Assembly: GCA_965279515.1 (NCBI GenBank)
Contig: CBDIID010000003.1
Coordinates: forward strand, 1,088,001 to 1,152,000
DNA from: Turneriella sp.
Lineage (GTDB): Bacteria; Spirochaetota; Leptospiria; Turneriellales; Turneriellaceae
DNA length: 64,000 nucleotides
Reading direction: 5' to 3'
Within the stretch, counting starts at the first letter, position 1, and every line of letters begins with the position of its first letter. Positions 292 through 29,447 of this stretch are shown here, piece by piece. The position numbers and the translations under genes are program-made. Below the pieces are notes generated by a model. The model was not told where the DNA came from, made no database searches, and saw only the letters and a list, made by a program, of their open reading frames with translations.

Positions 292-1693
292 AGATGAAGG
301 CCTCATTGGGTATTTGTATGCGTGCAATCAGAAAGACAATCACGAACATCAGCAATGGCACCCAGATTTTGGCGCGGGGAATAAAATATCCGAGCAACGC
401 ATCGCGCCGCATCTCGAGGTATTGCACGAGCCATGTCAGTATGATCAGCGATAACACGAGCGAAACGGTGAGCGTCGCTGTTTTCCAGACAAAGACCTGT
501 GAGATGATGCTGAGCGCCGACTTAAAATCTGAAGCGCGGAAAAAAACAAAGGCAAAACTCCAGCCGACAACGACCCAGAGATTGCGCACCAGCCACCAAA
601 AGTTGTTCGCGGGCGACTTGCCTACTTTCAGGATTTTCTCCACACAGAGAAAAAGGCCGTGCAGCACACCCCACACCAGAAAGTTCAGCGTCTCGCCGTG
701 CCAGATACCCGAGAGCACCATGGCCGCGAATAAGTTGAAATACTGGCGTACAGCGCCGACGCGGTTACCCCCCAAAGGAAAATAAATATATTCCCGGATA
801 AAGGCAGAGAGCGTGATATGCCAACGTGTCCATAGCTCTGAAAAACTCGTCGAAAAATACGGGCTGCGAAAATTCACCGGCATATCGTAACCGAAAAGTT
901 TTGCCATACCGCGCGCCATGTCGATAAAGCCGGAGAAATCACAATAGATCTGCGCGCTATAGCCAAAGATTGCCAAGAGCGTATCGATGCTGCCGTACTC
1001 CGCCGGCGCCTTGAACACGGGATTAATGAGGTAGCCCAGTACGTCAGCGATAAACAGCTTCTTTATTAATCCGAGCGCGATCAGGTACAGACCGCGCGTC
1101 TGCCCCTCTTGCGACTCGACTTCATTGCCGATCTGGGCATAAAAATCCGAAGAGCGCAGAATCGGGCCCGAAATCAGGTGAGGGAAAAACAGCATAAAGA
1201 GAAAAAACTTTCCCGGTGCGACGTCACTGACTTGTGACGGCTGCAAAGACGGCCTCGTGCCGACAGCCGTCCCTGAGGCATCCATGCCTTTGGTTCTTGA
1301 GACATCCACCTGAAAGGCAATAAACTGGAAGGTGTAAAAGCTGATCGCCAGCGGCATGACGATCTTGAGCGTTGCGGGGTCAGCAATGCCTGCATGCGGC
1401 GCAACCAGCGCCACCGCCGAATTGAAATATTTAAAAAATACCAGGTGCAGTATATTCAGTGCAACCGCAAATACCAGTGTCGCGCGGGAGGCCGAAGCGG
1501 CGATGCGACGCGCGAGAAAATAGTTGATCGCAATGACAATCAGAAAATGCAGCAGAAACGCCGGGCTATAAAAACCGTAATAGAACAACGAAGCGGCGAT
1601 GAGAAAACCCACGCGCAGGCGCTGCGGCAGGTTCCAGTAGATCAGGAACGAAAAACTAAAGAAGGCAACAAAAATGAGCGAAAGAAAGTTCAC
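278..1693 (-). CDS. MBOAT family O-acyltransferase (AlgI/DltB-like)
   Basis: Motifs PLAISFYTFQ, FFPHLISGPI, YCDFSG, NFRSPY, WTRWHITLS and SGIWHG; multi-pass membrane protein. Confidence 0.93.
   Translation of the reverse strand: MNFLSLIFVAFFSFSFLIYWNLPQRLRVGFLIAASLFYYGFYSPAFLLHFLIVIAINYFLARRIAASASRATLVFAVALNILHLVFFKYFNSAVALVAPHAGIADPATLKIVMPLAISFYTFQFIAFQVDVSRTKGMDASGTAVGTRPSLQPSQVSDVAPGKFFLFMLFFPHLISGPILRSSDFYAQIGNEVESQEGQTRGLYLIALGLIKKLFIADVLGYLINPVFKAPAEYGSIDTLLAIFGYSAQIYCDFSGFIDMARGMAKLFGYDMPVNFRSPYFSTSFSELWTRWHITLSAFIREYIYFPLGGNRVGAVRQYFNLFAAMVLSGIWHGETLNFLVWGVLHGLFLCVEKILKVGKSPANNFWWLVRNLWVVVGWSFAFVFFRASDFKSALSIISQVFVWKTATLTVSLVLSLIILTWLVQYLEMRRDALLGYFIPRAKIWVPLLMFVIVFLIARIQIPNEAFIYVQF
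1236..1289 (-). repeat. Double-hairpin GGA-loop element, in frame inside the MBOAT
   Basis: Sense strand reads aggca-TGGA-tgcct ca gg gacggctg tc ggc-ACGAG-gcc gtctttg cagccgtc; 54 nt. Confidence 0.7.
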
Positions 1694-1734
1694 GAGATGT
1701 CATTGTGACCGACGGATTTAAAGGCGCAAGCGAA

Positions 1735-2625
1735 TTAGAACTCGAATACCGCGGCGAGGTAGGCGGCGTCGCGTCGGGGGATGACCGCCGTCTGCGCATA
1801 GCGGATTTTTTGTCCTGGCGATGCCCCTTCCGCCGCGCTGCCGTTATTGCCAGAAAAGTCGCGGCGGAAATTCTGTCCCGTTGTCCAGCCGATGATGTGA
1901 CCGATCATTGCCCCCGCGACGACGTCTGAAAACCAGTGCGAGTCGTTTTCGAGGACACTGAGCCCCATTGCCAGGGAAACCGGATAACCAATGATGGCAA
2001 TCCAGTGCTTTTTAGGGTAATATGCATAAAGCGCAGACACAAAAGTAATCGTCGACGATGTATGGCCCGAAGGCCAGAAAAAGCGCCCTTCGCTGCGACT
2101 GAAGTCAGTGTTGAAGAAACGGAAATCCGTAGCATTGTCGGTGCGGGTGAAATCCGACGGCGCATTCGGGTCGCCATCCTTGAGCGGGGCCTGGCGGCCG
2201 CTGACATATTTCATCAGCATGGTGATCAGCCCGGTTGTCGCAATCGCCTGTATCGTCGCCGACCCCGCGCCGATGACTTCGTTGTCTGATTCCTTGAGAC
2301 CCCAGAGATACATGACGACGGCAGGGGTAATCTGCCAGAACCAGCCGAGAAAAAGCCCGACCTTACCGAAATCGCGGCCAATCGGGTCCTTCCAGAAAAA
2401 TTTTTGCACCGCATTGTCGGCGCCGCTCTGGGCAATGACGTAGGTTGAGCCGATCGCCCCCAGATGCCAGAAGCTGTTCCAGCCTGCATACGAGTCATAG
2501 ACATTGCCCAAGACGTTGTGCCACGGGTGCAATCTTTTGCCCTGATTTTCAGCGGGGGGATTTTCCGCGGCGGCGACGACGGACAGCGAAAGCAGCAAAA
2601 CGCACGTGACTTTTTTCAAAAACAT
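1735..2625 (-). CDS. PAP2-family phosphatase with signal peptide
   Basis: Likely start MFLKKVTC at 2625. Motifs KYVSGRQAP, WPSGHT and HWFSDVVAG. Confidence 0.85.
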   Translation of the reverse strand: MFLKKVTCVLLLSLSVVAAAENPPAENQGKRLHPWHNVLGNVYDSYAGWNSFWHLGAIGSTYVIAQSGADNAVQKFFWKDPIGRDFGKVGLFLGWFWQITPAVVMYLWGLKESDNEVIGAGSATIQAIATTGLITMLMKYVSGRQAPLKDGDPNAPSDFTRTDNATDFRFFNTDFSRSEGRFFWPSGHTSSTITFVSALYAYYPKKHWIAIIGYPVSLAMGLSVLENDSHWFSDVVAGAMIGHIIGWTTGQNFRRDFSGNNGSAAEGASPGQKIRYAQTAVIPRRDAAYLAAVFEF

Positions 2626-2718
2626 ACGACCGGTTCGGCAGGCAGGCTGAAAAGCAAACGGCGGCCGAACATCCAAATATGCTGGACGGCGCCCGGCCAT
2701 GCTTCCGACACGGGAAAC

Positions 2719-3522
2719 ATGCTGAAAGTTATTGCATCCATCCTTCTGAGCCTGGCTCTTCTCGCCCCGGCAAATGCCGCCGACCCGGCCGCCGCGAAAT
2801 ATATCGAATATCTTCCCGGCACGATGCCGCTGATTCTTGAAGTACCGCATGACGGCATCGAGGCTTATCCCGGTGTCGCCGAACGCACAAATCCCAAAGG
2901 GTTTCCGGCATTCCGCAAAGGCAGGGATACGAACACCGCTGAACTTGCCCGCAAGCTACAGGCGGGCTTTTTCGAAAAAACAGGAAAAAAGCCCTATGTC
3001 GTCATCATGAAACTTGCCCGTAAGTGGGTGGATGTCAACCGCGAAGAAGAGCGCGGTGTGGAGAACGAGAAGATCGCAGAGGTCTACCGTCTCTACTATA
3101 CAAAACTGCACGAAGCCAAAAATGAAATTATCCAGAAACACGGGAAAGGCCTGATCCTCAATATCCATTCGAGCAACACCTGGCAGCATGACGTCTATTT
3201 CGGCAGTGGCGGCATGAAGGCCGTGAAGCCGCTCATCAAACGCTCTGGTTTCAACGCCTACAGCGGCGAATTCAGCATACAGCAAACGCTCTCCGACAAG
3301 GGCTATGAAATTCCCGGTTATAAAAATATTCCGTCAGAACAAGGGCCGACAGGTAATGTCAACCGCGCGCTGACGTGGGTTGATAAGGACAGCAAGCTCG
3401 ACGCGATCGAAATTGAAATCAATGGCAAAAAACACCTCGAAGAAGCGGAGAGCCTGACAAAGTTCTCGGAAGATTTTGGCGAAGCGGTACTGAAGTTCGT
3501 GAAGAAGTATTACACACCATGA
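2719..3522 (+). CDS. Secreted N-formylglutamate amidohydrolase-like protein
   Basis: Signal peptide MLKVIASILLSLALLAPANA. Motifs LILEVPHDG, ARKWVDVNR and LILNIHS. Confidence 0.7.
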   Translation: MLKVIASILLSLALLAPANAADPAAAKYIEYLPGTMPLILEVPHDGIEAYPGVAERTNPKGFPAFRKGRDTNTAELARKLQAGFFEKTGKKPYVVIMKLARKWVDVNREEERGVENEKIAEVYRLYYTKLHEAKNEIIQKHGKGLILNIHSSNTWQHDVYFGSGGMKAVKPLIKRSGFNAYSGEFSIQQTLSDKGYEIPGYKNIPSEQGPTGNVNRALTWVDKDSKLDAIEIEINGKKHLEEAESLTKFSEDFGEAVLKFVKKYYTP

Positions 3523-4478
3523 AAATTTTCATCACGGGCGCCTCGGGTTTCGTCGGCTCAGCGGTTGTCACACAACTTAAGAAGAAACATTCGCTCTTTG
3601 CGATGTCGCGTTCTGAAAAGAGCGACGCGGCGATCAAAAAGCTCGGCGCCAAACCCGTGCGCTCAGAGCTCGGCAAGGTTTCGCCTGCCGACCTCAAAGG
3701 CATCGATGTGATCGTGCACGCGGCGGCATTCGTCGAACAATGGGGTACTAAAGAAGATTTCTGGAAAGCGAACGTCACTGGCACCGAACAAATCATCGAA
3801 GCCGCGAAGGCGGCGAAAGTAAAACGTTTTATATTTATTGGAACCGAAGCCTGCCTGTTCCACGGGCAAGACATGATCAATATCGACGAGAGCTATCCCT
3901 ACCCCGAAAGTACACCTTTTCTTTATTCACTGACCAAGGGCGAAGCTGAGAAACGCGTGATCGCCGCAAATACCAAAACCTTTGCAACGCTGTCCATACG
4001 CCCGCGGCTCGTCTGGGGCACCGGTGACAAAACCATACTGCCCGTGCTCGTCGATATGATCCAAAAGAAAAAATTCATGTGGATGGACCACGGCGCCAAA
4101 AATACCGACACCACACACATTCTGAACCTGGTGCACGCGGTAGAGCTCGGCCTCAAAAAAGGCAAAGGCGGCGAAGTCTATTTTGTCACCGACGGCGAAA
4201 AAACGACCTTCCGCGAATTCCTCGGCCGATACCTTGCCACACAGGGAATCACCGCTCCGCAAAAATCCATCCCCGGTTCTGTGGCGCGTGGCGTCGCCGC
4301 CCTCGTCGAGGGGATCTGGAAATTGTTTCGGCTCAAGGGTGAACCGCCACTGACCCGCTTTGCCGCGGCGATTATGTCGCGTCATTGCACGATCCGCATC
4401 GATAAGATTCAGGCAGATATGGGTTATAAGCCGGTGCTTTCCGTGGCCCAGGGCCTTCAAAACATGCCCCGACTCTAG
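3519..4478 (+). CDS. NAD-dependent epimerase/dehydratase (3-beta-HSD-like extended SDR)
   Basis: Motifs TGASGFVG, HAAA and YSLTK. Confidence 0.9.
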   Translation: MKIFITGASGFVGSAVVTQLKKKHSLFAMSRSEKSDAAIKKLGAKPVRSELGKVSPADLKGIDVIVHAAAFVEQWGTKEDFWKANVTGTEQIIEAAKAAKVKRFIFIGTEACLFHGQDMINIDESYPYPESTPFLYSLTKGEAEKRVIAANTKTFATLSIRPRLVWGTGDKTILPVLVDMIQKKKFMWMDHGAKNTDTTHILNLVHAVELGLKKGKGGEVYFVTDGEKTTFREFLGRYLATQGITAPQKSIPGSVARGVAALVEGIWKLFRLKGEPPLTRFAAAIMSRHCTIRIDKIQADMGYKPVLSVAQGLQNMPRL

Positions 4479-4531
4479 ACCCTACGGTCCCGTGGCGGCT
4501 CTGCCGATAATCGACTATGCGATTATCCAAT

Positions 4532-4584
4532 GTTACACGAGGTAACTGGGGACGGCGGACAGGAGGTCCTCTTTTTGCCGTCCT
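4532..4584 (+). repeat. Double-hairpin GGA-loop element upstream of or within the 5' end of the spoIID-like gene
   Basis: gttac-ACGAG-gtaac tg gggacggc ggac-AGGAG-gtcc tcttttt gccgtcct; 53 nt. Confidence 0.7.
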
Positions 4585-4612
4585 GGCGGATTTACCGCGT
4601 AGCGGGCGGCTT

Positions 4613-5722
4613 TTGCACCTTGTTGCGGCGGCAATTTTATTGATCACGGCCTGCTCCCCGAGGGGAAAAGGCAGGTTTTCCTCTTATATATATAAATCCT
4701 CAGGCAGTACCTCCCTGCCCCACGATGCCGACGGCGGCATCATTGTGCGGGTGAAACTCTTTGCCGGTGAATCGTTGACCATCAAGGCCGACGACTATAC
4801 CTTCACCTCAGGCAAAACTACCCGCCGCGGTTCGGGTTCGATCACCATCACCGAAGAAGGTGTCTTGCAACCCAAGGGCTATTTTGTACTGGGTTCAAAA
4901 CGTTATCACGGCGCGCTCGAAGCCAAACGCGACAGCGGAGGTTGGCTCTACATCAACCATGTACCGATGGATGAATACTTAACATCCGTTGTAAGCCACG
5001 AGATGAGCCCGTCATGGCATAGCGAGGCGCTGAAGGCCCAGGCCGTTGTCGCGCGTACCTACCTGCTTCTCAAAATGAAAGAGCGCGCAAAGAAGCCATA
5101 CGACGTCGACACCACAACCAACTTCCAGGTCTATGGCGGTATCAAAAAGGGTGACACGGGTGCGCGCAACGCGGTGGCAGAAACGCATAATGAGGTTCTT
5201 TACCACGGCGACAAATTGGCGCAGACATTTTTTCACTCTTCGTGTGGTGGTACGCTTGCATCGGCCGAAGAGGTTTGGGGTAAATCGGTGCCCTACCTGG
5301 GTGTACAAAGCTCACCCTATTGCTCCAGCGCACCGGTCTACAAATGGTCGATTAAAATTCCCTTCACCGAAATCGGTCGTCGGCTCGCTGCCAGCGGCGT
5401 GCGCAGTGTCAGCGTGGCCGAGCGCAGCCCGTCAAAACGCGTGAAGACGCTCAACATCGTCACGGCCTCGGGCACCAAGAAAGTGCGCGCGGATAAATTC
5501 CGTACGGCACTGGGCGCGCTCAAGGTAAAATCGACCTTCTTCGGCGTCGCGCGCGACGGCAATGCAGTGATTCTCACCGGCCGCGGTTTTGGCCACGGCG
5601 TCGGCATGTGCCAGTGGGGCGCAAAAGTTCAGGCCGATGAGCGGGGCACGAGCTACCGCCGTATTCTCGACCATTATTTTCCGGGAACATCGCTGCGTGC
5701 CGTGAACGCACAGAGCGTCTAA
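4613..5722 (+). CDS. SpoIID/LytB-domain lytic transglycosylase, probable lipoprotein
   Basis: Motifs YLTSVVSHEM, EALKAQAVVARTY, FQVYGG and GHGVGMCQWGA. TTG at 4613 gives a lipobox (LITAC); the ORF is open from 4517. Confidence 0.88.
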   Translation: MHLVAAAILLITACSPRGKGRFSSYIYKSSGSTSLPHDADGGIIVRVKLFAGESLTIKADDYTFTSGKTTRRGSGSITITEEGVLQPKGYFVLGSKRYHGALEAKRDSGGWLYINHVPMDEYLTSVVSHEMSPSWHSEALKAQAVVARTYLLLKMKERAKKPYDVDTTTNFQVYGGIKKGDTGARNAVAETHNEVLYHGDKLAQTFFHSSCGGTLASAEEVWGKSVPYLGVQSSPYCSSAPVYKWSIKIPFTEIGRRLAASGVRSVSVAERSPSKRVKTLNIVTASGTKKVRADKFRTALGALKVKSTFFGVARDGNAVILTGRGFGHGVGMCQWGAKVQADERGTSYRRILDHYFPGTSLRAVNAQSV

Positions 5723-6339
5723 TGGCGAGAAAAGCAAAAACATCCCCCGACGTTTACCGCGGTCACATTCAGACGCCCTCGGCTGCCGCGCCCACACAAA
5801 GCGAATATACATCACCGCTGGCACGCACATCACTGCCGGCCGTGAGCTGGTATGAATTTATCGCCACAGGTTTTTTCTCAGGCTACCTGCCGAAAGCACC
5901 GGGTACCTGGGGTTCGATTTTCGCCATCCTCATCTTTTTCCTCACCGCGAGAATGATTCCGCATGAAGGTTTTTTTATGGTGGGATTTCTCCCGGTGTCG
6001 TGGTTTGCGATCGTGCTGGGCATCATCACCACGGTGCTGGGCATCTATACGTCGCAGCGTCTTGCCGACGAATGGCGCGAGAAGGACCCGGGTGAAATTG
6101 TCATCGACGAATTTGCCGGCATATTTTTTGCCTGTGCGCTGGTGACACCGACCCTTTTCTCACTGGCCGCTGCTTTTCTTTTGTTCCGCTTTTTCGATAT
6201 CGTCAAACCGGGCCCGATTACAAAACTGCAGAACCTGCCCGGCGGCCAAGGCATCGTGCTCGACGACGTGCTCGCGGGCATTTTTGCCGCGCCGCTGGCA
6301 TTCGCCGCAGAGCTCATTTACCGGAAAATTTCTGGTTAA
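5722..6339 (+). CDS. pgpA: Phosphatidylglycerophosphatase A
   Basis: Motifs APGTWGS, DPGEIVIDE, FRFFDIVKP and DDVLAG. Confidence 0.93.
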   Translation: MARKAKTSPDVYRGHIQTPSAAAPTQSEYTSPLARTSLPAVSWYEFIATGFFSGYLPKAPGTWGSIFAILIFFLTARMIPHEGFFMVGFLPVSWFAIVLGIITTVLGIYTSQRLADEWREKDPGEIVIDEFAGIFFACALVTPTLFSLAAAFLLFRFFDIVKPGPITKLQNLPGGQGIVLDDVLAGIFAAPLAFAAELIYRKISG

Positions 6340-6342
6340 GCC

Positions 6343-7212
6343 ATGGGAAAAAACCGGCTACAGGTTCTCTACAATGTTCTCGAAAAGGAATTCTCCGGTT
6401 CGGAAGAGGTATTCTTAAGCGCCGAGAAATCCCGCTTTGCGCTGCGTGAAAATTACCAAGCAATTCTGAAAACGATCACAGAGGCGACAGAAAAGCTCGA
6501 CCATTATCCCCAGGCGGCGGCCTTGAAACGCATTCGCCTCATCGAAACGCTGCTCAAAGATCTCTTGCTGCGCTATGAGACCGAACGCCGCCATTTTAAC
6601 GCGCTGGGCTTTCTGCTCGGGCGCCTGCGCTCAAACCTCGCGACCGAAATGCTTGAGCCGCGCCTCTACCAGAAGATACGCTCAGCGCTCGAACAGGAAG
6701 AAAACTTCGTGCGCCTCAGGGAAAAGTATCCCGATGCCGATGCGGTGATCACCGAACCCAAAGCGCCGCCAAAACCGCAAAAGCCGGTGAAGAAAGTACG
6801 GCTGATGCTGATCGCCGCTGCGAATTTACACTATGCGATACCCGTAACAAAAATCTGGAAAAAGACGCCCGCCGCAGGGCCTATCGCGGAGAAGCTTCTG
6901 AAGACGGGCTTCTCGCACATGCGCCTGCCCGTCGACGGCAAACCTGCGCGTGATTACGCACATGCGGTGGCCTACTCCGACTTCAAAGACGAACGCCGCC
7001 TGGTCTATTGCGATACTTATTTCATGCCTGTGGAAATCCCCCAGAAAATGCTGAAGCAGATGGTGGTCTTTGCCACCAGCAAAGTGGGAGATCAGGCGGA
7101 GCACCGGCCATACGTTACGTTTTATGGCCGTCACTTTTTTGTGTACGGCGCACGTTTGAGTTACACTGTTCGCACCGGTGGCCGCGTCAGATCAATCTCA
7201 CCTGGGCGTTGA
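6343..7212 (+). CDS. Hypothetical protein with a helical N-terminus
   Basis: 289-aa ORF tightly packed in the operon. Confidence 0.75.
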   Translation: MGKNRLQVLYNVLEKEFSGSEEVFLSAEKSRFALRENYQAILKTITEATEKLDHYPQAAALKRIRLIETLLKDLLLRYETERRHFNALGFLLGRLRSNLATEMLEPRLYQKIRSALEQEENFVRLREKYPDADAVITEPKAPPKPQKPVKKVRLMLIAAANLHYAIPVTKIWKKTPAAGPIAEKLLKTGFSHMRLPVDGKPARDYAHAVAYSDFKDERRLVYCDTYFMPVEIPQKMLKQMVVFATSKVGDQAEHRPYVTFYGRHFFVYGARLSYTVRTGGRVRSISPGR

Positions 7213-8329
7213 CGTTCTGCATCGCCTGATGCGCCTTTTCATGGAACATAAAACCGATGTGCTGCCAGTGATCGAGCGCGGCCGCATCGTCGGTGAGATC
7301 GACCGCCTTGCGATCATGGAAGCGCTCAGCGAGATCAGGCCCGAAGGTTACATGCTCGAGATCAAACCGCCGGGCTCTGCCGACGATTTTCTGCGGCGCC
7401 TCGACGCTGCGGGCGCCGACACGCTCGCTACCATCAACCGCAATTTTGAATTCAACGCGCTCTGGGGCCGCGCAGAAATTTTACAGGCGCAGGGTAAGAT
7501 TCCGCAGGTGAAAATCTGGACACCACAGACGGAACAACGCCGCGCAGAATCTGAGATGCCCGCGCCGGAGACGCAGCCGGCCCTGCGCAGCGCGCCTGCC
7601 GTTGCCTTGCGCGACGTGGAAGAACCGACCGGTTCTACTTTCACGATTGTCCGCGAAGCACCGAAGCCAACACCCATAGAAGCTGCCCCGCCTGCCCGCG
7701 TCGAAACCCGTCCCGTGGCAGAAAACCTGCACCGCGAAATTGAACGCGGCCGTCTGGCGATCAACACGCTTGCGGCTCTCGACCTGCCGCTCATGGCCTG
7801 CGACGGTGTCGGCAGCGAGATTTTTCATAACCGCGCCTTTGCGGAGATACGCATGCGCGACGCGATCAACCTCAAAAGCGAAGATCTCGTGCTACGGGCC
7901 AAAGATGCCATCACCGAAAGCGCGCTGAAGGGCGAACTCGACATCGAGAAGGCCGTGAAGATCAAAGCCGGCCCGCGCGGCTATGATGTGCTCTGTAAGG
8001 CCATCCGTAATTTTGACGACCCGACCTCGCGTGCCGTCGGCTACATATTCTGGCTGATCCCCCACGTGCTGCCAGGACCGCAGTTATACACCACGGACTC
8101 AGCGACCGGCGACTATGCCGGTAAAACCCTGCCTGAAATTCTTGCCGCCGAAGAATCGAAGGCGATGGCATGGGCGATGCGCGAGGCTGACGGCAATCAA
8201 TCCGACGCGGCACTATTGCTTGGCATACCGCGGCAGACATTCAACTACCGTTACCGCAAGCTCATGCGCGGGAGGCCCGTGCGCGAGCAGCAACCTAAAA
8301 TAAAAAAGGAAAAAAGTACCGGTGAGTAA
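7178..8329 (+). CDS. CBS-like domain protein with a C-terminal Fis-type HTH
   Basis: N-terminal LPVIERGRIVGEIDR (CBS-like). C-terminal AMREADGNQSDAALLLGIPRQTFNYR (HTH_8). Confidence 0.75.
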   Translation: MAASDQSHLGVDVLHRLMRLFMEHKTDVLPVIERGRIVGEIDRLAIMEALSEIRPEGYMLEIKPPGSADDFLRRLDAAGADTLATINRNFEFNALWGRAEILQAQGKIPQVKIWTPQTEQRRAESEMPAPETQPALRSAPAVALRDVEEPTGSTFTIVREAPKPTPIEAAPPARVETRPVAENLHREIERGRLAINTLAALDLPLMACDGVGSEIFHNRAFAEIRMRDAINLKSEDLVLRAKDAITESALKGELDIEKAVKIKAGPRGYDVLCKAIRNFDDPTSRAVGYIFWLIPHVLPGPQLYTTDSATGDYAGKTLPEILAAEESKAMAWAMREADGNQSDAALLLGIPRQTFNYRYRKLMRGRPVREQQPKIKKEKSTGE

Positions 8330-8334
8330 TACAC

Positions 8335-20736: not shown

Positions 20737-21426
20737 ATGAAATCCCACCTGCTCACCTCTGCTCTTCTGTGTATATCGATGCTGCAATGCAACAATTACA
20801 GCCTCGCCGACAAGCTCGCGAATCCTGGCGTAAGCAACAGCACCTCGCAGGAACGCTTAATCGCATTCGTCGCCTCAGCGTCTTCGCTGGCAAATTTTAC
20901 CGGCTACATTGCCGGGGCTTATGCCAGCTGTGCCGGTTTTTCGGGTCAGGGAAGAGCCGACTGCGCCTGCCAAATAATGGCTGCCAATGCCGGGCTTTCC
21001 ATGCCTAAGAGCGGAAAATATATTTCATGGACTAGCATCACCAGCAACGACATGAGATGCCGAATTCAGGGCATATTCAACCAGACGACCTGCGCTTCGA
21101 TCCCGTCCGGTGGACCACTTTGGGTAAATACAAACGGTGTTTCCATTGCCAATGGTTATTCTGGTTTGTTTTCAGGCAATCTCATGTCCGCATTGAACCT
21201 GACTGAAAACAAGGGAGCCCCGCCCAGCACAGACGTCTGGACGGGAACAAATTCCGATGGCACGATTGCCGGCACGGGTGCCACCGCAACCTGTACAGAT
21301 TGGACAGGTGCGGGCAACGGCATTTCCGGGACAACAAATAGCTCTGGTGTAATATGGACGAATAACAGTAGCAGCTCATCATGCTCGAGTTCATCCTTAC
21401 CGGTTTATTGCTTTGCCCAACCTTAA
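20737..21426 (+). CDS. Paralogous DUF1554/endostatin-like lipoprotein
   Basis: Start MKSHLL at 20737, lipobox ..MLQC. Motifs ADCAC, VWTGT, TCTDW and PVYCF. Confidence 0.7.
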   Translation: MKSHLLTSALLCISMLQCNNYSLADKLANPGVSNSTSQERLIAFVASASSLANFTGYIAGAYASCAGFSGQGRADCACQIMAANAGLSMPKSGKYISWTSITSNDMRCRIQGIFNQTTCASIPSGGPLWVNTNGVSIANGYSGLFSGNLMSALNLTENKGAPPSTDVWTGTNSDGTIAGTGATATCTDWTGAGNGISGTTNSSGVIWTNNSSSSSCSSSSLPVYCFAQP

Positions 21427-21429
21427 CCC

Positions 21430-22473
21430 ATGACCCACCGCCCCCTCGGCACGACCGATATTGCCGTCAGCGCCATCTGCCTCGGCACGATGACATGGGG
21501 ATTACAAAATACAGAAGCCGAAGGCCACGAGCAGATGGATTATGCCCTCGGCGAAGGCGTCAATTTTTTTGATACCGCCGAGATGTATGCGATACCGCCC
21601 TCCCCCGAAACCTATGGCACCACCGAAACGATTATCGGTAGCTGGTTCGCGAAACGCAAGAACCGTGATAAAATTATTCTCGCCACCAAGATCGCTGGTA
21701 ACGGCCTCAAGTGGGCCCACAGCGCGAGCAACATCAACCGTGAAAGCCTCATCGCCTCGGTCGAAGGTTCACTCAAGCGCCTGCAAACCGACTATATCGA
21801 CCTCTACCAGCTGCACTGGCCCAACCGCGGTTCTTACCATTTCGGCCAGGCCTGGGATTACAAAATCAAGAAGTCGACCACTACAGAAGAAGAGATCGCA
21901 AACTTCGCCGAAGTGCTTGAAACGCTACAAGAACTGATGGCCGCGGGAAAAATCCGCCATATTGGCCTAAGCAATGAGACGGCCTGGGGCACGATGAAAT
22001 ATTTGCAACTTGCGGAAACAAAGGGCCTGCCCCGTGTTCAATCGATACAGAACGAATACAGCCTTTTGTACCGCCTGCACGAACCCGACCTCATGGAAGT
22101 TTCGCTGCGCGAAAATGTGGGATTGCTCGCGTGGTCACCGCTCGCTTCCGGCCTTATTACCGGTAAATATGCCAACGGCGCGCGGCCCAAGGGGACGCGC
22201 TGGACACTGTCTAATCGCTTTAACCAGCGCGACGTGCCGAATGCGCACGCTGCTGTGGAGCGCTACGCTGAAATTGCAAAAAAGCACAACCTCGATGTGG
22301 CACAGATGGCGCTCGCCTTCGTGCTTTCGCGGCCCTTCGTCACCGCGGCGATCATCGGGGCCACCAGTATGGAACAGCTGAAAACCAATATTGCTGCACA
22401 GCAGCTGACGCTCAGCCAGGAAGTTCTCGATGATATCGCCGCGGCAAGGCGTGATTTTCCGATTCCCTTCTAA
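21430..22473 (+). CDS. Aldo/keto reductase (Tas-like)
   Basis: Motifs CLGTMTWG, DTAEMY, LYQLHWP, GLSNET and QNEYSLL. Confidence 0.92.
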   Translation: MTHRPLGTTDIAVSAICLGTMTWGLQNTEAEGHEQMDYALGEGVNFFDTAEMYAIPPSPETYGTTETIIGSWFAKRKNRDKIILATKIAGNGLKWAHSASNINRESLIASVEGSLKRLQTDYIDLYQLHWPNRGSYHFGQAWDYKIKKSTTTEEEIANFAEVLETLQELMAAGKIRHIGLSNETAWGTMKYLQLAETKGLPRVQSIQNEYSLLYRLHEPDLMEVSLRENVGLLAWSPLASGLITGKYANGARPKGTRWTLSNRFNQRDVPNAHAAVERYAEIAKKHNLDVAQMALAFVLSRPFVTAAIIGATSMEQLKTNIAAQQLTLSQEVLDDIAAARRDFPIPF

Positions 22474-22528
22474 AAAATTTAGACAAATCCTTCCACCATC
22501 CGCATCTATCTGACAGAGGATATCGACG

Positions 22529-23026
22529 GTGGATTTCAACAACTGGGCCGAAACGATCCGCCCGAAACTCATCCGCCTCGCGGCGTCACAACTCAAGGAC
22601 GAACACGAGGCAGAAGATGTGGTGCAGGATACGCTGACCATTCTGTGGCGGCGCGGGCCCGGGGGAATTTCAAACCTCGACGCCTATGCGGCGCGTTCTG
22701 TGTGGCAGAACGCCTCGCAAAAGCGGGCACGGCGCCGCGACGCGCTGCCGCTCGAGACGGAAACTCTGCGGGCCGCGGGGTTTGACGAGCCGGTGGCGCG
22801 TGAGGTTGTTGAAGACCAGCTACAGACCTGGGATATCGAAGAAGCCATCGCCGGCCTCAGCGAAGAGCAGCAAAGCGTCGTGCGCCTGCACTATTATAGC
22901 GGCCTGAGCTTCAGGGAGATCGGCGGAGCCCTCAAAATTTCAATGAATACGGCCGCAAGCCGCTGTCGTTATGCCTTAGATCAGCTGCGGCATAAGCTCG
23001 CGGAGTACGGAGAAAAAGGAGAATAG
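22529..23026 (+). CDS. ECF sigma factor
   Basis: AEDVVQD (region 2) and LSFREIGGALKISMNTAASR (region 4). Confidence 0.9.
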   Translation: MDFNNWAETIRPKLIRLAASQLKDEHEAEDVVQDTLTILWRRGPGGISNLDAYAARSVWQNASQKRARRRDALPLETETLRAAGFDEPVAREVVEDQLQTWDIEEAIAGLSEEQQSVVRLHYYSGLSFREIGGALKISMNTAASRCRYALDQLRHKLAEYGEKGE

Positions 23027-23027
23027 A

Positions 23028-23357
23028 ATGGAAGATAAGAAAGAAGAGAACGCGGTGCGCTTCGGCGGGCACGCCGTGCCTGGCATCGCCGGTGTGATCG
23101 GTGGCGTCGCTTTTGCGGTACTTGTACCATGGGTATTGTTGTCACATGGCCAACTGCTCGGCACCACGGTCTTGACAACGCTGGTGATGATCGCAGTCAT
23201 CGGTGGCGGCGTGATCGCACTCACGGCGGCGTTTTTCAGCCTGGTGATGCCATCGAGCGTCAGCCACGAAAATAAATGGGACCAGTGGGAAAAATGGCAG
23301 AAAATGCAGAAGAAGATGAAGGATGACAAAAATCAGGGCGAGAACAAACCCGAATAA
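23028..23357 (+). CDS. Small two-TM protein coupled to the ECF sigma factor
   Basis: RBS AGGAG; starts 1 nt after the sigma stop; two hydrophobic helices. Confidence 0.75.
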   Translation: MEDKKEENAVRFGGHAVPGIAGVIGGVAFAVLVPWVLLSHGQLLGTTVLTTLVMIAVIGGGVIALTAAFFSLVMPSSVSHENKWDQWEKWQKMQKKMKDDKNQGENKPE

Positions 23358-23393
23358 AAAATCCGCAGGGAGGCTCGCCTCCCTGCGGGTTTG
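23358..23393. terminator. Intrinsic terminator between convergent genes
   Basis: aaa atccgcagggaggc tc gcctccctgcgggt tt. Confidence 0.75.
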
Positions 23394-23396
23394 TCA

Positions 23397-23846
23397 TTAA
23401 CCGGAAATAACCGAGTCGACCGAGAACTTGCCGCCGCCGTTGATGAGAATCGCAACGACGAGCCCAAGCGCAAGAATGAAAAACTCGATGCCCTCGCCCT
23501 TCTGAGCGCCGAACCAGTTCATGAAGAAACCGTTCTCCCAGTGGACCATGAACATGGCCGAGAGCAGAATTACACCGATCCACAGGCTCATGAGACGTGT
23601 ACCGGCACCCGCAAGCAACAGCACACCACCCACAGACTCACCCACGATGACGAGAAATGCGATAATCGCCGGCAGCCCCGCAGTCTTGGTGAAATACTGC
23701 ATCGTGCCTGAAAAACCATAACCGCCAAACCAGCCCAGAAGCTTTTGCGCACCGTGCGGCAGAATCATCGCCGCGAGGGTGAGGCGCAGGATTAACCCCG
23801 TCCAGTCTCCGTTCGTCGAGAGGATGTTTTGAATCAAATTTGTCAT
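23397..23846 (-). CDS. DoxX family membrane protein
   Basis: Motifs HGAQKLLGWFGG, GFFMNW and GEGIEF; AGGAG RBS. Confidence 0.92.
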   Translation of the reverse strand: MTNLIQNILSTNGDWTGLILRLTLAAMILPHGAQKLLGWFGGYGFSGTMQYFTKTAGLPAIIAFLVIVGESVGGVLLLAGAGTRLMSLWIGVILLSAMFMVHWENGFFMNWFGAQKGEGIEFFILALGLVVAILINGGGKFSVDSVISG

Positions 23847-23994
23847 AAAATCTCCTTAAAAGAATTTGTTATGACCTCTGAAAAACACCGTTTTCGGAAC
23901 TCTTCAGACGCCATACATAGCCCATTACAGCGGCCTACTGGCCGGGCGTTTTTCGAAAACGCAAGGCCGCTTTGCGGCCTTCTGGAAAAGGCTT

Positions 23995-24052
23995 TAGTTG
24001 ACTCATCAACCATTAGCCTGAAGATAATGCCAAATAGTTGACTCGTCAACTA
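23995..24052. promoter_or_regulatory. Tandem palindromic operators, likely bound by the adjacent MarR
   Basis: TAGTTGA-CTCA-TCAACCA (23995-24012) and TAGTTGA-CTCG-TCAACTA (24035-24052), 40 bp apart. Confidence 0.75.
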
Positions 24053-24072
24053 AAAGTTGTTATTTTGGTGTT

Positions 24073-24543
24073 ATGAAAAAGATGAGCCCTGCAGTGACGG
24101 TCTGGCGCGATATGCTGGCCTACCACAGTGAAGTCATGTTCCGCACCGAACGGGAACTGAAGGCCGCGGGGGCGATACCGCTCGCCGCGTATGACATCCT
24201 CATCGAACTCGAGACGGTACCTGAAAAAAAAATGCGGCTCTACGATCTCTCGGAAGCTTGCCTGTTAACGAAAAGCGGCGTCACGAAGATGGTCAACACG
24301 CTTGAAAAACAAAACTTGCTGCGCCGCGAACGCTGCCCCGATGACAAGCGCGGTTTCTTCGCCGCAATTACGGATAAGGGAGGTTTTGCGGTGCGCAAGG
24401 CCTGGCTCATCTATAAGAAATGCATCGAGAATTATTTTACCTCGGCGCTCAGCGAAGGGGAAATTGTTCAGCTCGGCAAGATCTTACCCAAGCTGCGGCA
24501 GAACCTGCCGAAAAACTTTATGCAGGAAGCCTGCAGCGAATAA
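24073..24543 (+). CDS. MarR family regulator
   Basis: Motifs YDILIEL, LTKSGVTKMVNTLE and CPDDKRG. Confidence 0.92.
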   Translation: MKKMSPAVTVWRDMLAYHSEVMFRTERELKAAGAIPLAAYDILIELETVPEKKMRLYDLSEACLLTKSGVTKMVNTLEKQNLLRRERCPDDKRGFFAAITDKGGFAVRKAWLIYKKCIENYFTSALSEGEIVQLGKILPKLRQNLPKNFMQEACSE

Positions 24544-24581
24544 ACAAATTGCCGCTGTAGCGCAGGCGGCGATAAAGGTGG

Positions 24582-25856
24582 ATGCAGCTCAAGTGGTACC
24601 ATGCGGCGATCGTCGTCATCACGGCTCTCGCCACCCTGCTGTTCTGGTCGTTTAACCGCGGCCCCGGGCAAATCGCACCGGGGGGCTACCGCAGCTTCAG
24701 CCGCGTCGGCAGCCAGGGCTTTGCGACTCCTGCCGAGCTCGAACGCATGCTCAACCGCAACCCCTCGCATAAGGCAATGCTCGAGGCCTACCGCGTGCAC
24801 GCGCAGTACCCCGATTTTTCGCGGCCGCTCGAGAAGACCATGGTTGACCTCATCGATCCGTGGAAGCATGTCGACGAACCGATGCCACTCATCGACGATG
24901 CGGCGCTGCGCAGCGAAGGCGGCGTCAAAAAGCGGATTGAAGATTTAAAGAAGTCTGGAAAAAAAGACGCGGACATCGAAGCAGATCTCAAAAAATATTA
25001 CGAATCGTTGCCGCGTTACCAGTTTTCAGCCAACCGCCACACGCTCACCTTTGGCGACGAGCTCATCGTCACGCTGAAGGTGACCGACGCCAACGGCGCA
25101 AGGCTTGCCTACACGTTGGGCGATGTCTATGTACTGGGTGACCCCCTCTTCACCAAATCACAGCTGGGTTCGCCCGACTTCAACGACACGGGGATTCCCC
25201 CCGATGGTGTTGCCGACGACGGCATCACCACCTTCAGCTGGAAAATTCCCGGCGAAGATAAAAAGTATTGGGGCAACCTGAAGCTTGTGGTGCAGATCAA
25301 AGCGAAGGGCGCTAAAGAGCCGATTGAAGTTACACATACATTTTTCGCGAGCCCGATCTCACCCGGTAAATTCACCGATAATATCACCGAGCGCCTCGAA
25401 AACGGCAGTCTGGTCATCGACGCCATCGTGGATGTAAAACGGGAATGCAAGTTTGTCTTTCAGGCAAATCTCTACGATTACAGGGGAAATCCTACACACT
25501 GGGTGACAGTAAATTCTGTTCTCGAGCCCGGTTTCAGAACTGTATCCTTTATCTTCTTCGGCAAGATCTTTCATGACAATGGTTATTCGGGCAAGTTTAC
25601 GATGCGCGATCTCAGGGGCACCTGCGAGAACCTACCCTTCCCCGCGCGCTGGATCGGCGACCCGGCGAAGGTCGACGCGATTGCGAATGCCAACCCGCTC
25701 GATGAGCCGGTGCTGTATTACATGCCGTATACGACGAAGACGTACACCACAACGCGGGAATATACGCTGAAAGACTTCAGTAATGCCGAATGGACTTCGC
25801 CGGAAAAAGAGATGCGGATCAGAGATATGGGAGAAGCAGCGAGAGGGGAAAATTAA
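24582..25856 (+). CDS. Membrane-anchored protein with a choice-of-anchor X-like acidic motif
   Basis: N-terminal TM segment; FNDTGIPPDGVADDGITT motif. Confidence 0.6.
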   Translation: MQLKWYHAAIVVITALATLLFWSFNRGPGQIAPGGYRSFSRVGSQGFATPAELERMLNRNPSHKAMLEAYRVHAQYPDFSRPLEKTMVDLIDPWKHVDEPMPLIDDAALRSEGGVKKRIEDLKKSGKKDADIEADLKKYYESLPRYQFSANRHTLTFGDELIVTLKVTDANGARLAYTLGDVYVLGDPLFTKSQLGSPDFNDTGIPPDGVADDGITTFSWKIPGEDKKYWGNLKLVVQIKAKGAKEPIEVTHTFFASPISPGKFTDNITERLENGSLVIDAIVDVKRECKFVFQANLYDYRGNPTHWVTVNSVLEPGFRTVSFIFFGKIFHDNGYSGKFTMRDLRGTCENLPFPARWIGDPAKVDAIANANPLDEPVLYYMPYTTKTYTTTREYTLKDFSNAEWTSPEKEMRIRDMGEAARGEN

Positions 25857-25890
25857 TCCCTTGCCCCGGATTTAAATCCGGAGCAAGGGA
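25857..25890. terminator. Hairpin/terminator between convergent genes
   Basis: tcccttgc c ccggattt aaatccgg a gcaaggga. Confidence 0.7.
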
Positions 25891-25899
25891 AATGGAAAC

Positions 25900-26715
25900 T
25901 TACCTACAGCCTAAGCCCAAACTATAGCACGCATTGTACTCCAGCTTGGCGGCGTTGTTGATCGAGTTTGAATCATCGCCGGTGTGAACACGGTAATAAC
26001 CGTTCTTACCGCTATCCCAGTTACTGCCCGAAGCGCGGCCGCTCCAGATGTAGTGGTATGAGTAGCGCGATCCACTGAGGCAATTCGAGTAGCTGCCCGT
26101 TGTATTGGTACCGCAGGTACTGTGGTATGACACCGCGCCGTCGTCTTCGCCGGGAAGAATCACCGAAGCGCCTGTCCAGGTTGCTTTGTACCCGGCCATC
26201 GCATAGATGCCGATGCCCTTCATGTTATTATGGTTGTACGAACCGCGTGCGTTGCCGGTTTTGAGGGCGTCGACCATGCTGTTCGATTCCCAGAATGCGG
26301 CATTCGCCAGTTCAGAACCGCCGGCGGCGCTCGAAGACGCCCAGATGCGGCGGATGTTGTAAGCCGTTGCGGATTTATCGATAAAATATTCAGAAGCATA
26401 GCAGCCTGCGCTGTGGCAGATGATCGTGCACCAGTTTGCGCCTTTGCATTTTGCTTCAAGCACTTGGTAGAGTTTAGATTGAGCACGGCACGTACCCCAT
26501 GTACGCGGATCAGAAGCACCGTCGTAACCGACAAAGTACTTTGTCGCTGCTGTGGTGATGTTCTTCGATGCGCCCCAATAGTTGTTCACATCTGCGGAAT
26601 ATCCGCCTGCGCTATCGCAGTGGCTGCCCGAGCGGCCATGGACAAAGATCACCGATTCGGCAGCGCTCAGCGCTGACGCTGTAAGAAAGGTCAGGATTAT
26701 ACCTGTTTTAATCAT
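25900..26715 (-). CDS. Secreted Cys-rich alpha/beta-hydrolase (lipase-like)
   Basis: Signal peptide, IFVHG oxyanion block, CHSAG nucleophile, DDGAV. Confidence 0.7.
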   Translation of the reverse strand: MIKTGIILTFLTASALSAAESVIFVHGRSGSHCDSAGGYSADVNNYWGASKNITTAATKYFVGYDGASDPRTWGTCRAQSKLYQVLEAKCKGANWCTIICHSAGCYASEYFIDKSATAYNIRRIWASSSAAGGSELANAAFWESNSMVDALKTGNARGSYNHNNMKGIGIYAMAGYKATWTGASVILPGEDDGAVSYHSTCGTNTTGSYSNCLSGSRYSYHYIWSGRASGSNWDSGKNGYYRVHTGDDSNSINNAAKLEYNACYSLGLGCR

Positions 26716-26848
26716 TTTATTCGTGCTTACTCCTTCACGCAAAACTTGGTTTTAAATTCTGATCAGAAACTATCCAATCAGTTGTAGTATACCGTCTCCA
26801 TGCAGAGCGGTACGCCAAAAAAAGGGTAAACGAATGTGTGTTAATCGA

Positions 26849-26990
26849 GCTTCTTTATGACACAAATGTCATAAAGAAGCGGAGCAAGCGGACGGAACCG
26901 AAAAAGCAAAAAGCAGCGAAGCGCTTTAGCAGCCGCTTGCTTGCAAGCGGCGAGGCTTTTTGCTTTTTCGGAAATCTTCCGTCGGCTTGC
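26849..26990. repeat. Large nested intergenic palindrome
   Basis: A 14-bp perfect hairpin at 26849-26880, then a multibranched stem with a 17-bp perfect arm (26898-26914 pairs with 26955-26971). Confidence 0.8.
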
Positions 26991-26995
26991 GCAGA

Positions 26996-27352
26996 TCAAT
27001 CCGTAAAATAAACCCGCGCCATTTCATAATCGTCGACAGTGGTGAAGAAGGATTTCAATTTTGTAACTTCAAAAATATGATTCACGATGGGCCTGGGCTC
27101 GGTAAAAACCACGCGCGCGTCTTCGTGTTTGCGGATCGCGAGAATAAAATTCACCAGCGCGCCGATGCCCGAAGAATCGATCGTCTCGAGCTCTTCGATG
27201 TCCATGATGATGCGCACGCGCTCTTTGGCCAGCAGCGGCTCAAGCTCGGCGCGAATCGCTTTAGCGGTAAAAAGATTCAGAATGCCGCTGAGAAAACAGA
27301 CCGTGTAACCCTTGTCAGGGATTTCATTAATCAATACCTTGCAGCGATCCAT
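26996..27352 (-). CDS. STAS-domain anti-sigma factor antagonist
   Basis: IDSSGIGAL motif. Confidence 0.9.
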   Translation of the reverse strand: MDRCKVLINEIPDKGYTVCFLSGILNLFTAKAIRAELEPLLAKERVRIIMDIEELETIDSSGIGALVNFILAIRKHEDARVVFTEPRPIVNHIFEVTKLKSFFTTVDDYEMARVYFTD

Positions 27353-27394
27353 CGGTGAGTTATTTTGCAGATGCCCGATGACACGTCGCGTGAA

Positions 27395-28339
27395 TTAAAG
27401 CGCCGAAAATTCCTTCCGCATCTGCTGCCGCTCAGCCACCGTCGGCAGATAACCGCGTCCACCCTCGATATTATCCTTTAGGTGTAGTAGCTTGCGCGTT
27501 GCAGGTATGGCAAACTGCACCTGCGGGTTCGAAAAAATGAATTTTAAAAAGTATTGCGCCCAGGAGGTGATGCCCTTCTCCACCGCCCAGGCTGGTACGG
27601 CCTTGCCGCGCACCTGACGGAAGAGCGCGCCTTGGCCAAAAGGCTCATTCGCAATCACGGCAACCCCGCGCTCGGCTGCCGTCCTGAGTAGAGACGCATG
27701 ATGATGCGTCTCTACTTCGGCGGATGTCTCACCGAGCGAATATGGTATCTGCAGAAAGTCGAGTTTCTCGGCGCGGAGGATTTTTTCGAGTTCGGGAAAA
27801 GCCGACGTCATATAATGCGTCAGGCCAATATATTTGTAAACACCGCGTTCCTTATTTTCGCGCAGGGTTTTCAGCTGCGTGCGCCAGTCGACGAGGTTGT
27901 GGATCTGCATCAGTTCAATTTTTTTGCGCCTGAACTGAGTCAGGGAATCCTGCATCTGGCGCAGGCCCGCTTCACGCCCGGAAATCCAAACCTTGGTCGC
28001 CATAAAGAGATTGGCATTGATGCCCAGATCGGCCGAGACTGCCCCCGTGACTGCTTCGGCATTGCCATACATCGGCGATGAATCGATGAGACGACCGCCT
28101 GCCGCATAAAACGCCTGCAAAACTTCTTTAACTTGTGGGATCTCCCCTGAGGCTAAGCCCACGTCGAAGGTTGAATAGGTGCCGAGACCGAGCCGGGGCA
28201 AAATTTCATCCGTCGCGGGTATTTTGGCTTTAAAAAGCGTTTCTACTTTACTTTCCTTAGCCCAGAGCGGCCCCAACATCAGCGGCAGCGAGGCTGTCGC
28301 GGTTTGTTTCAGGAACTCCCACCGCGTCAGGCCCGGCAT
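27395..28339 (-). CDS. Aldo/keto reductase
   Basis: Motifs LGLGT, IDSSPMYG, ATKVW, MQIHNL and AIPAT. Confidence 0.9.
   Translation of the reverse strand: MPGLTRWEFLKQTATASLPLMLGPLWAKESKVETLFKAKIPATDEILPRLGLGTYSTFDVGLASGEIPQVKEVLQAFYAAGGRLIDSSPMYGNAEAVTGAVSADLGINANLFMATKVWISGREAGLRQMQDSLTQFRRKKIELMQIHNLVDWRTQLKTLRENKERGVYKYIGLTHYMTSAFPELEKILRAEKLDFLQIPYSLGETSAEVETHHHASLLRTAAERGVAVIANEPFGQGALFRQVRGKAVPAWAVEKGITSWAQYFLKFIFSNPQVQFAIPATRKLLHLKDNIEGGRGYLPTVAERQQMRKEFSAL
27687..27716. repeat. GTAG-type REP palindrome in frame inside the aldo/keto reductase
   Basis: AGTAGAGACGCAT-GATG-ATGCGTCTCTACT, a perfect 13-bp inverted repeat. Confidence 0.8.
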
Positions 28340-28418
28340 GCGTCAAAACGTCCCTACCCGACGCGGGGACAGCCGATTTTTTTTGCAACCGGGAAACAGG
28401 CCCCTGCATCTCAAAGTC

Positions 28419-29447
28419 ATGAAGAACAATGTTAGTTATAGCCCAACCGGGCAAGAAAGTGGCCCTGTTTTTACTGAGGCCGAGAAGACAACGGGCCGCT
28501 CCAAATTCGGATCGTGGTTCGCCGGCGATAAGATGTTTATTTTGATGCATTTTATCCCCCTTGCGGCGATTTATACCGGCGTGACATGGCAGTCCGTCGT
28601 CTTGGGCATCTCGCTCTATTTTATCCGTATGTTCTTTATTACCGCGGGTTACCACCGCTACTTCGCGCACAAATCGTTCGAAACCAGCCGCTTTTTCCAG
28701 TTTATTCTCGCATTCGGCGCTGAAACATCGGGCCAAAAGGGCGTGCTGTGGTGGTCAGGCCACCACCGCGGCCACCACAAACACAGCGATACCGATGCAG
28801 ATATTCACTCGATGAAAAAGCTGGGCTTTTACCAATCCCACATCGGCTGGATCTTCGACAAAAAGAATAAGCGCGTGCCGCTCGAGGATATCCAGGATTT
28901 TGCGAAATACCCCGAAATCCGTTTTATCTCCAAACATGACTGGATCGCCCCCTGGACGCTGGGCGTCATCTCAACGCTCATTGCCGGCTGGCCTGGACTC
29001 TGGATCGGCTTTTTTGCGAGCACACTTCTCACCTACCACTCGACCTTTACCATCAACTCACTCACACATAAGTGGGGTAACCAGCGCTACAAAACCGGCG
29101 ACGAATCGCGCAACCACTGGCTGCTGGCACTCACAACGCTCGGCGAAGGCTGGCATAACAACCACCACTACTACCAGGCATCGGCGCGCCAGGGTTTTTT
29201 CTGGTGGGAGATCGACATCACCTACTACATTCTGCGGATCTTAAGTCTCTTCGGCCTTGTCTGGAATTTCAAGACGGTGCCAAAGGCGATCAAGGCAAGA
29301 ACGATCCGTGCACAGGAGGTGCAGGGGGCGTCGCAGCCAGGGATGGCGTCCGCGACGACTCGTGGACAGCAAGCTTTAGAAGCAGCGAAAAACAAAATGG
29401 CAAATGCGCCAGCGAAGGGGCTTGGGTCTCTTGTCACAGATCCTTAA
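28419..29447 (+). CDS. Acyl-CoA (delta-9) fatty acid desaturase
   Basis: His boxes HRYFAH, HRGHH and HNNHH; GEGWHNNHH. Confidence 0.93.
   Translation: MKNNVSYSPTGQESGPVFTEAEKTTGRSKFGSWFAGDKMFILMHFIPLAAIYTGVTWQSVVLGISLYFIRMFFITAGYHRYFAHKSFETSRFFQFILAFGAETSGQKGVLWWSGHHRGHHKHSDTDADIHSMKKLGFYQSHIGWIFDKKNKRVPLEDIQDFAKYPEIRFISKHDWIAPWTLGVISTLIAGWPGLWIGFFASTLLTYHSTFTINSLTHKWGNQRYKTGDESRNHWLLALTTLGEGWHNNHHYYQASARQGFFWWEIDITYYILRILSLFGLVWNFKTVPKAIKARTIRAQEVQGASQPGMASATTRGQQALEAAKNKMANAPAKGLGSLVTDP
29309..29361 (+). repeat. Double-hairpin GGA-loop element in frame in the desaturase C-terminus
   Basis: tgcac-AGGAG-gtgca ggggg cgtcgc a gcca-GGGA-tggc gtcc gcgacg actc; 53 nt. Confidence 0.65.

Follow-up and report, generated by a model that had tools for sequence, protein, structure and literature searches.

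A dispersed 57-nt twin-hairpin element with A(N)GGAX loops in Turneriella and its proposed movement into CC dinucleotides

The window analysed here is a 64,000-nt stretch of a Turneriella sp. genome (NCBI GenBank assembly GCA_965279515.1, contig CBDIID010000003.1, positions 1,088,001 to 1,152,000 of the forward strand), which carries three copies of a small dispersed element that folds into two hairpins with A(N)GGAX loops. We propose, with a probability of about one half, that this gene-less element of 57 or 54 nt moves as a folded single strand and is joined after a CC dinucleotide in trans, most likely, if on weak support, by a tyrosine recombinase, and that its loops are predicted ligands of CsrA. 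Hereafter, G000 denotes the genome under study and C3 its contig, other G numbers the genomes of relatives, and L numbers individual loci.

The three window copies and their host genes are as follows.

1236..1292, minus strand: copy 1, a unit of 57 nt inserted in frame into the MBOAT gene; covariance model score 43.7 bits
1289-1276 and 1271-1236, minus strand: hairpin 1 (loop 1285-1280) and arm (inner hairpin loop 1258-1254) of copy 1
4527..4583, plus strand: copy 2, 57-nt unit with a CC at either end, inserted in frame into the SpoIID-domain gene from codon 4 onwards; 38.8 bits
4537-4541 and 4561-4565, plus strand: loops of copy 2
29308..29361, plus strand: copy 3, 54-nt form, inserted in frame into the desaturase's variable C-terminal tail; 50.6 bits
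29314-29318 and 29339-29344, plus strand: loops of copy 3
278..1693, minus strand: host gene 1, MBOAT-family acyltransferase, 471 aa compared to 450-452 aa in most close homologues
4517..5722, plus strand: host gene 2, encoding a SpoIID-domain protein of 401 aa whose start codon is conserved among orthologues
28419..29447, plus strand: host gene 3, encoding a fatty-acid desaturase of about 342 aa, with the start picked by our gene caller

A sequence-only reading of this stretch had described three double hairpins of 53-54 nt. All three are present and fold as it had drawn them, the predicted folds consisting of two hairpins each (z of -3.2, -3.0 and -1.7 for copies 1 to 3), with a shifted register of the inner hairpin in the predicted minimum-energy fold of copy 2. 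The lengths had to be revised to 57 nt for copies 1 and 2 and 54 nt for copy 3. Alignment of the host proteins to their orthologues revealed that copies 1 and 2 are cleanly missing from several of them. Copy 1 accounts for 19 extra residues (approximately residues 134-152) that are absent from all 35 best MBOAT homologues, a few of which possess shorter, different inserts in the same loop; the closest of these homologues that bear a name are assigned to Turneriella. Among 11 orthologues of the genus, this site shows a clean 57-nt gap in six, other short inserts in four and an apparent remnant in one (G008), and at copy 1 the contigs from runs X5 and X8 are shorter by a net 57 nt. A second, independent 19-residue insert of the family sits elsewhere in the MBOAT gene of relatives (P0006, P0010; L018:2560-2632). 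Copy 2 lies directly behind the conserved ATG, upstream of a putative lipoprotein-like signal, and five of the nine SpoIID-domain orthologues shown have a clean 57-nt gap. Copy 3 has a diverged counterpart only in the G001 orthologue (45.9 bits) and no match at eight other orthologue loci; no clean empty site was found for it, and the desaturase tail is not alignable elsewhere. Together with the covariation described below, the empty orthologous sites bear out the earlier view of a small, structure-conserved mobile family by which proteins gain peptides.

The anatomy of the element was derived from a parse of 191 of 197 copies. Each 57-nt unit consists of two free bases, hairpin 1 (5 bp with a 6-nt loop), two further free bases and an arm with a 5-nt 3' bulge, whose 9 bp lead into a hairpin of 4 bp and a 6-nt loop; the 54-nt form has a shorter bulge. 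What had been taken for a G-run after hairpin 1 is really made up of the 2-nt spacer and the first two bases, GG, of the arm. Hairpin 1 and the arm are both capped by C-A(N)GGAX-G, the C-G closing pair being demanded by the parse for hairpin 1 only. GGA is found in 320 of 382 loops, 256 of the 382 read ANGGAN and 43 are one G short, as in ACGAG; any N and one-base deletions are tolerated, and the two commonest second loops are AYGGAY. The loops, formerly summarized as GGA/GAG, are better described as A(N)GGAX with C-G closure, where ACGAG represents a recurrent form one base shorter that contains no GGA. The unit ends have no inverted repeats.

The stems are free in sequence, with a mean identity of 62% among 44 canonical copies, and keep their pairing. 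In the model alignment of 96 copies, both hairpins are 93% paired and the covariation score was reached by none of 500 shuffles, a test that ignores kinship; the arm helix is misregistered in this alignment (46% paired). A structure-anchored parse of the 44 copies, which is biased towards pairing, gave 75-98% Watson-Crick pairs per arm position. Moreover, seven pairs of copies at the same site, 72-89% identical and likely orthologous, were compared over 117 base pairs. They show 13 compensated double changes, where about 1.5 would be expected, along with five double and six single breaks and four wobbles; antisense sites are among those with compensated changes. At a MurA-like site, the stems have changed at three pairs, in each case with compensation and with altered amino acids.

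A search of G000 with a structure descriptor (small hairpin, spacer and bulged arm) revealed 42 elements, whereas five chromosome surrogates from a Markov model yielded 0, 0, 1, 0 and 0. A covariance model built from 24 copies found at least 99 matches at E<=1, a lower bound as 150 of 1191 candidates were scored. The copies are spread evenly over the replication strands (53/46) and cluster only marginally (11 observed versus 6.4 expected, p 0.05), with ordinary host genes between neighbouring copies. All 13 congeners possess 25-62 matches each at E<=0.001, seven of 17 further relatives have one to four, and three of 150 genomes sampled from the phylum have a single match (at most 32 candidates scored per genome). 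A strict pattern search over 185,579 species genomes returned two records, from Leptospiraceae and Turneriella. Among 16 metagenome matches, ten lie among genes close to those of G000, four in GC-rich contigs of distant taxa and two are chance-like. By eye, the GC-rich contigs of distant bacteria (L302, L303, L305 and L309) display the same minimal layout, in some cases within reading frames or in tandem. Searches of viral contigs gave zero and one pattern matches, the single one being unconvincing. A literature search, which covered few subscription papers, found no description of the 57-nt element or of the cassette hairpins considered below.

Insertion sites were surveyed by comparing 191 copies with second genomes; for the G000 copies, this comparison was limited to 1.6 Mb of the 4.4-Mb genome G011. 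Syntenic flanks were found for 70 copies and measurable indels for 53, of which 19 are exactly 57 or 54 nt. In the 20 clean empty sites (indels of 51, 54, 57 or 60 nt), CC occurs at the junction in nine, compared to a genome background of 6.2% (p 1e-6), and C at position -2 in 15. CC also forms the left flank of 80 of the 191 filled copies, and the element's own end tends to CC as well. At L134, the 5' CC of one copy has served as the insertion site of a newer copy; head-to-tail arrays with a period of 55-60 nt and remnants at old sites were also found. Similarity at the junctions beyond CC is weak (p of about 0.01 per side, n 36, one array copy included). A long target duplication was considered and rejected: clean single insertions have none, and longer repeats are mostly remnants of arrays. 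Occupancy is patchy on the genus tree: a Ham1-family site is filled in six of 14 genomes (four changes), and two MurA-like sites are filled in two and three of 13 genomes (two and three changes). Altogether, it is highly probable that insertion at a CC core is driven by an enzyme.

Some sites deserve separate mention. The Ham1-family copy (L286-L299) is antisense and sits just before the conserved (A/S)EDSG motif; it is tandem in three genomes and has left a one-residue remnant in G001. Copies abut the ends of tRNA genes in G002, G087 and G042 (L130:499-567; L247:1501-1574; L248), and at L247 ten bases of the tRNA end recur after the element. Two copies (G000 C3:3509541-3509593 and 3984732-3984950) precede flagellin-like genes and are on the strand opposite to them; the gene next to the latter copy has GGA hairpins of its own near its start. 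The labels MurA, RdgB, FliW, purC and flagellin are presumed assignments of ours.

Copies are depleted from coding sequence overall: 45 of 95 parsed G000 copies lie wholly inside called genes, compared to 88% coding sequence by our own gene caller. Copies in genes use all six frames and encode differing peptides of 18-19 residues. The sense orientation proposed from the window holds for its three copies, all in frame, but not for the family, in which 40 coding copies are sense and 21 antisense (p 0.02, with each array copy counted separately); it is a bias only. Between co-directional genes, 21 copies are sense and 24 antisense. Upstream of start codons, 14 are sense and 20 antisense, without enrichment on the copies' own strand. 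Sense and antisense copies do not differ in score (p 0.61), and GGA is retained similarly in both (80/92 against 51/62). Lengths that are a multiple of three are not enriched in coding copies (13/16 versus 8/13 for other copies, p 0.4).

We propose a route of movement based on these features. Cuts after CC at both ends would release the unit, which would close to a rod capped by both loops; when canonical copies are circularized in silico, 58 of 66 adopt such a rod fold. The GG at the foot of the arm might pair with the terminal CC of the unit or with the CC of the target, leading to strand exchange at a 2-nt core without any longer duplication. The mobilizer would read the fold rather than the sequence, and only copies with intact stems would propagate or refresh older ones. 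As 57 and 54 nt keep the reading frame, inserts in tolerant loops or termini persist as peptides of 18-19 residues. Sense copies are predicted to provide mRNAs with paired CsrA sites about 25 nt apart, and any regulation is probably a by-product. From the loop sequences, we consider it reasonably probable that sense transcripts bind CsrA; that the host selects the element for regulation appears doubtful.

The recombinase in this proposal is suggested by the cassettes of the genus. G000 has integron-like cassette arrays at C3:92000-171500 and 3734000-3805000 (L345-L347), as well as L332. Of 116 solitary hairpins with the loop set of the element, 86 fall in two cassette arrays that make up 3.1% of the chromosome, 84 of them on one strand, including ACGAG and AGGAG loop variants. 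Of the 108 inter-site segments in the arrays, 87 are bounded by terminal inverted repeats that are cassette-specific, and 47 have a hairpin close to an end. About a third of the cassettes have a single A(N)GGAX hairpin inside each of their ends. In a set of 65 distinct single cassettes, the gene is on the minus strand in 40 of 41 hairpin-free ones and on the plus strand, which is that of the loops, in 16 of 20 callable hairpin-bearing ones (p 4e-10). Hairpin cassette ends are found in seven of 13 congeners. One terminal repeat is common to many hairpin cassettes and is also found in G013, and a gene-less cassette of 194 nt occurs about ten times in the G000 arrays (e.g. C3:111115, 3735531 and 3746366). 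The candidate enzyme of G000 is the following.

C3:2926093-2927193 (L324): non-Xer tyrosine recombinase, 366 aa

It scores 161 against the integron-integrase cut-off of 265 (TIGR02249), and 11 of 13 congeners encode it; its distance to cassette ends is 0.5, 5.4 and 5.4 kb in G013, G002 and G005, and 40 kb in a fourth congener. Outside the genus, the element occurs in five of seven genomes with the recombinase and in two of ten without it (p 0.06); a stricter cut-off chosen after the fact gives 5/7 versus 0/10, on which we do not rely. That this recombinase is the enzyme inserting the element is a tentative and rather unlikely assignment.

Several observations weigh against the proposed movement by this enzyme. 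The co-occurrence of element and recombinase is confounded by kinship, the recombinase of G000 lies far from the arrays, and the 57-nt element was found beside none of 27 recombinase or nuclease loci, two weak matches aside. The crossover core of the cassettes is GTT/AAC rather than CC and 41 of the 65 distinct single cassettes have no hairpin, which argues that the recombinase does not need it. Moreover, 11 of the 20 empty sites have no CC at the computed junction, some of them owing to a one-base register error, and copies at the same site may be independent insertions or conversions rather than descendants of one copy. Finally, G-T outnumbers A-C on the loop strand by 28 to 5, cassette loops follow the sense strand of the cargo gene (16/20) and coding copies are 2:1 sense, all of which point to an RNA-level role.

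These last three observations favour an alternative in which selection keeps the element as a portable pair of CsrA sites, acting through a CsrA dimer on the mRNA (stability or translation) or as a distributed sponge in a lineage that has no CsrB-type RNAs, and its mobility would proceed via a protected RNA. The A(N)GGA loops fit the CsrA/RsmE rules, as the sequence-only reading had recognized: the loop counts mirror the variation described for RsmE, in which N and X are free, N may drop out and a C-G pair closes the loop (PMC4005645). In addition, hairpin 1 is within two mismatches of the consensus RUACARGGAUGU (PMC8668096) in 32 of 124 copies with six-base loops, and CsrA is encoded in 31 of 31 genomes. 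However, CsrA is also present in every element-poor relative, so that its distribution does not discriminate. Antisense copies are equally intact, with compensated changes at antisense sites too, 43 of 382 loops lack GGA, and own-strand start codons are not preferred. The sole reverse transcriptase found (511 aa) has no adjoining copy; this lone gene (L163:775-2310) adjoins a worn cassette site with a GGA hairpin. Overall, we consider this alternative unlikely, though the strongest of those compared with our proposal of a folded strand joined after CC.

A broader reading, which is speculative and likewise improbable, takes the twin A(N)GGAX hairpin as the tag of an undescribed gene-capture or mobility system, in which it would bracket captured, inverted cassette genes in a terminal stem, an arrangement equal to the TwoAYGGAY topology with cargo added. 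The 57-nt unit would be the smallest parasite of this system, and the same machinery, with CsrA as its co-factor, would insert it at CC. If this were true, the TwoAYGGAY 'RNAs' of many bacteria would be mobile elements or empty cassettes, and a route of cassette birth would become testable.

We also looked for other mobilizers. One possibility is a repetitive extragenic palindromic (REP)/REPIN-like element for which an HUH transposase (Y1 or Y2), cutting at a dinucleotide, provides mobility in trans. The 2-nt core, the pairing of hairpin foot and target, and the tandem arrays fit HUH chemistry. Y1-transposase genes are present in 12 of 14 genus genomes, and in Pseudomonas TwoAYGGAY has been reported upstream of REP arrays (bioRxiv 10.64898/2026.09.22.753630). 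However, a transposase partner of the REP-associated (RAYT) or HUH kind, as formerly suggested, failed to appear: none of 23 Y1 loci in the 14 genomes is flanked by the element, apart from one weak match (E 0.065; the search was confined to Y1 enzymes), and the flanks contain unrelated AT-centred palindromes instead. We regard this alternative as quite unlikely. The small Y1 (TnpA-like) genes without TnpB, flanked by AT-centred perfect palindromes, constitute a RAYT-like set with repeats of its own (L070:1440-1910; L141-L162). IS110 (PF02371) was not found in G000, in which alone it was searched, and reverse transcriptase, GIY-YIG and DUF559 genes are single and none is linked to the element. 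Two more families of C/G-run palindromes exist in G000 (25 and 26 hairpins), some within genes (e.g. C3 285654, 2295294, 13855 and 2626347). Least probable of all is an origin without a dedicated enzyme, through replication slippage, template switching at hairpins and gene conversion, aided by CC microhomology, as the arrays of period 55-60 nt, the weak junction similarity past CC and the remnants would suggest, because slippage fails to explain unlinked sites with fixed ends and size, and invariant loops amid variable stems.

Comparison with known systems revealed that the closest family is TwoAYGGAY (RF01731), which the sequence-only reading had overlooked. This motif was described in 2010 (Weinberg 2010, PMC2864571) and extended in a recent preprint (bioRxiv 10.64898/2026.09.22.753630). 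It is reported to be multi-copy, of variable copy number, suspected mobile and a proposed CsrA ligand (bioRxiv 10.64898/2026.09.22.753630; PMC4333381), with 1,693 of 16,086 Pseudomonas hits in annotated coding sequences (bioRxiv 10.64898/2026.09.22.753630). Similar to the element, it has a short hairpin followed by a longer 3'-bulged hairpin with ANGGAX loops in both, and one copy aligns to RF01731 positions 45-113 in the same topology with 22.3 bits. Nevertheless, the best RF01731 score in G000 is 24.4 bits against a gathering cut-off of 43 (150 of 191 candidates scored), and two of the six weak matches in G000 are solitary array hairpins. RF01731 matched neither copy 3 nor the cassette or metagenome loci, and no Rfam family was found at gathering level in the window or at E<=10 over positions 1000-30000. 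The element differs from TwoAYGGAY in its length (57 versus 168 nt), in lacking the basal stem and extensions, and in that about half of its copies are in frame in genes. A basal stem enclosing both hairpins was not detected: flank pairing is 73 versus 64 in shuffled sequences (p 0.07), and the flanks are host sequence at empty sites. Moreover, ends, empty sites and the CC core are defined here for the element. It works like TwoAYGGAY without belonging to the family, and is a minimal form of the TwoAYGGAY/coding-palindrome kind, distinguished by its defined core and by its unexpected link with inverted cassettes.

The palindromic elements of Rickettsia are similar in that palindromic repeats insert in frame into unrelated genes and are missing in orthologues. 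Nearly half of those elements are reported to lie in frame in unrelated genes and to be translated, with a size of about 150 bp and a conserved peptide (PMC10969869). In contrast, the present element is 57/54 nt long, uses six frames, conserves its structure instead of a peptide and carries CsrA-type loops. Small dispersed repeats (SDRs) are 21-27 nt in size. Cyanobacterial SDR5 is described as a very small mobile module that inserts precisely into the 8-bp HIP1 palindrome (PMC4390886), compared to the CC dinucleotide targeted here. The hairpins of CsrB/RsmZ-type small RNAs share the A(N)GGAX loop, the C-G-closed stem and two sites per unit (PMC4005645); the element differs in being dispersed, mobile and within genes both ways. 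A miniature inverted-repeat transposable element derived from a DDE transposon was rejected, since terminal inverted repeats are absent and only the 2-nt CC core recurs, with no target-site duplication. The attC sites of integrons keep their structure while the sequence varies. The element resembles them in this respect and shares its hairpins with the integron-like arrays of the genus, but the unit has neither the R''/R' AAC...GTT boxes seen at array sites nor cargo, and its core is CC.

TwoAYGGAY has been unexplained since 2010, and the 2026 preprint suspects mobility, leaving its link to regulation open (bioRxiv 10.64898/2026.09.22.753630). Exact ends, empty sites and a CC core make both mobility and CsrA binding testable on a 57-nt substrate. 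The hairpins shared with inverted cassette ends link the element to the question of how cassettes originate. For its hosts, the element is a source of protein insertions of 18-19 residues, conserved enzymes such as the MurA-like and Ham1-like proteins included, in which the stems change in compensated pairs at the price of altered amino acids.

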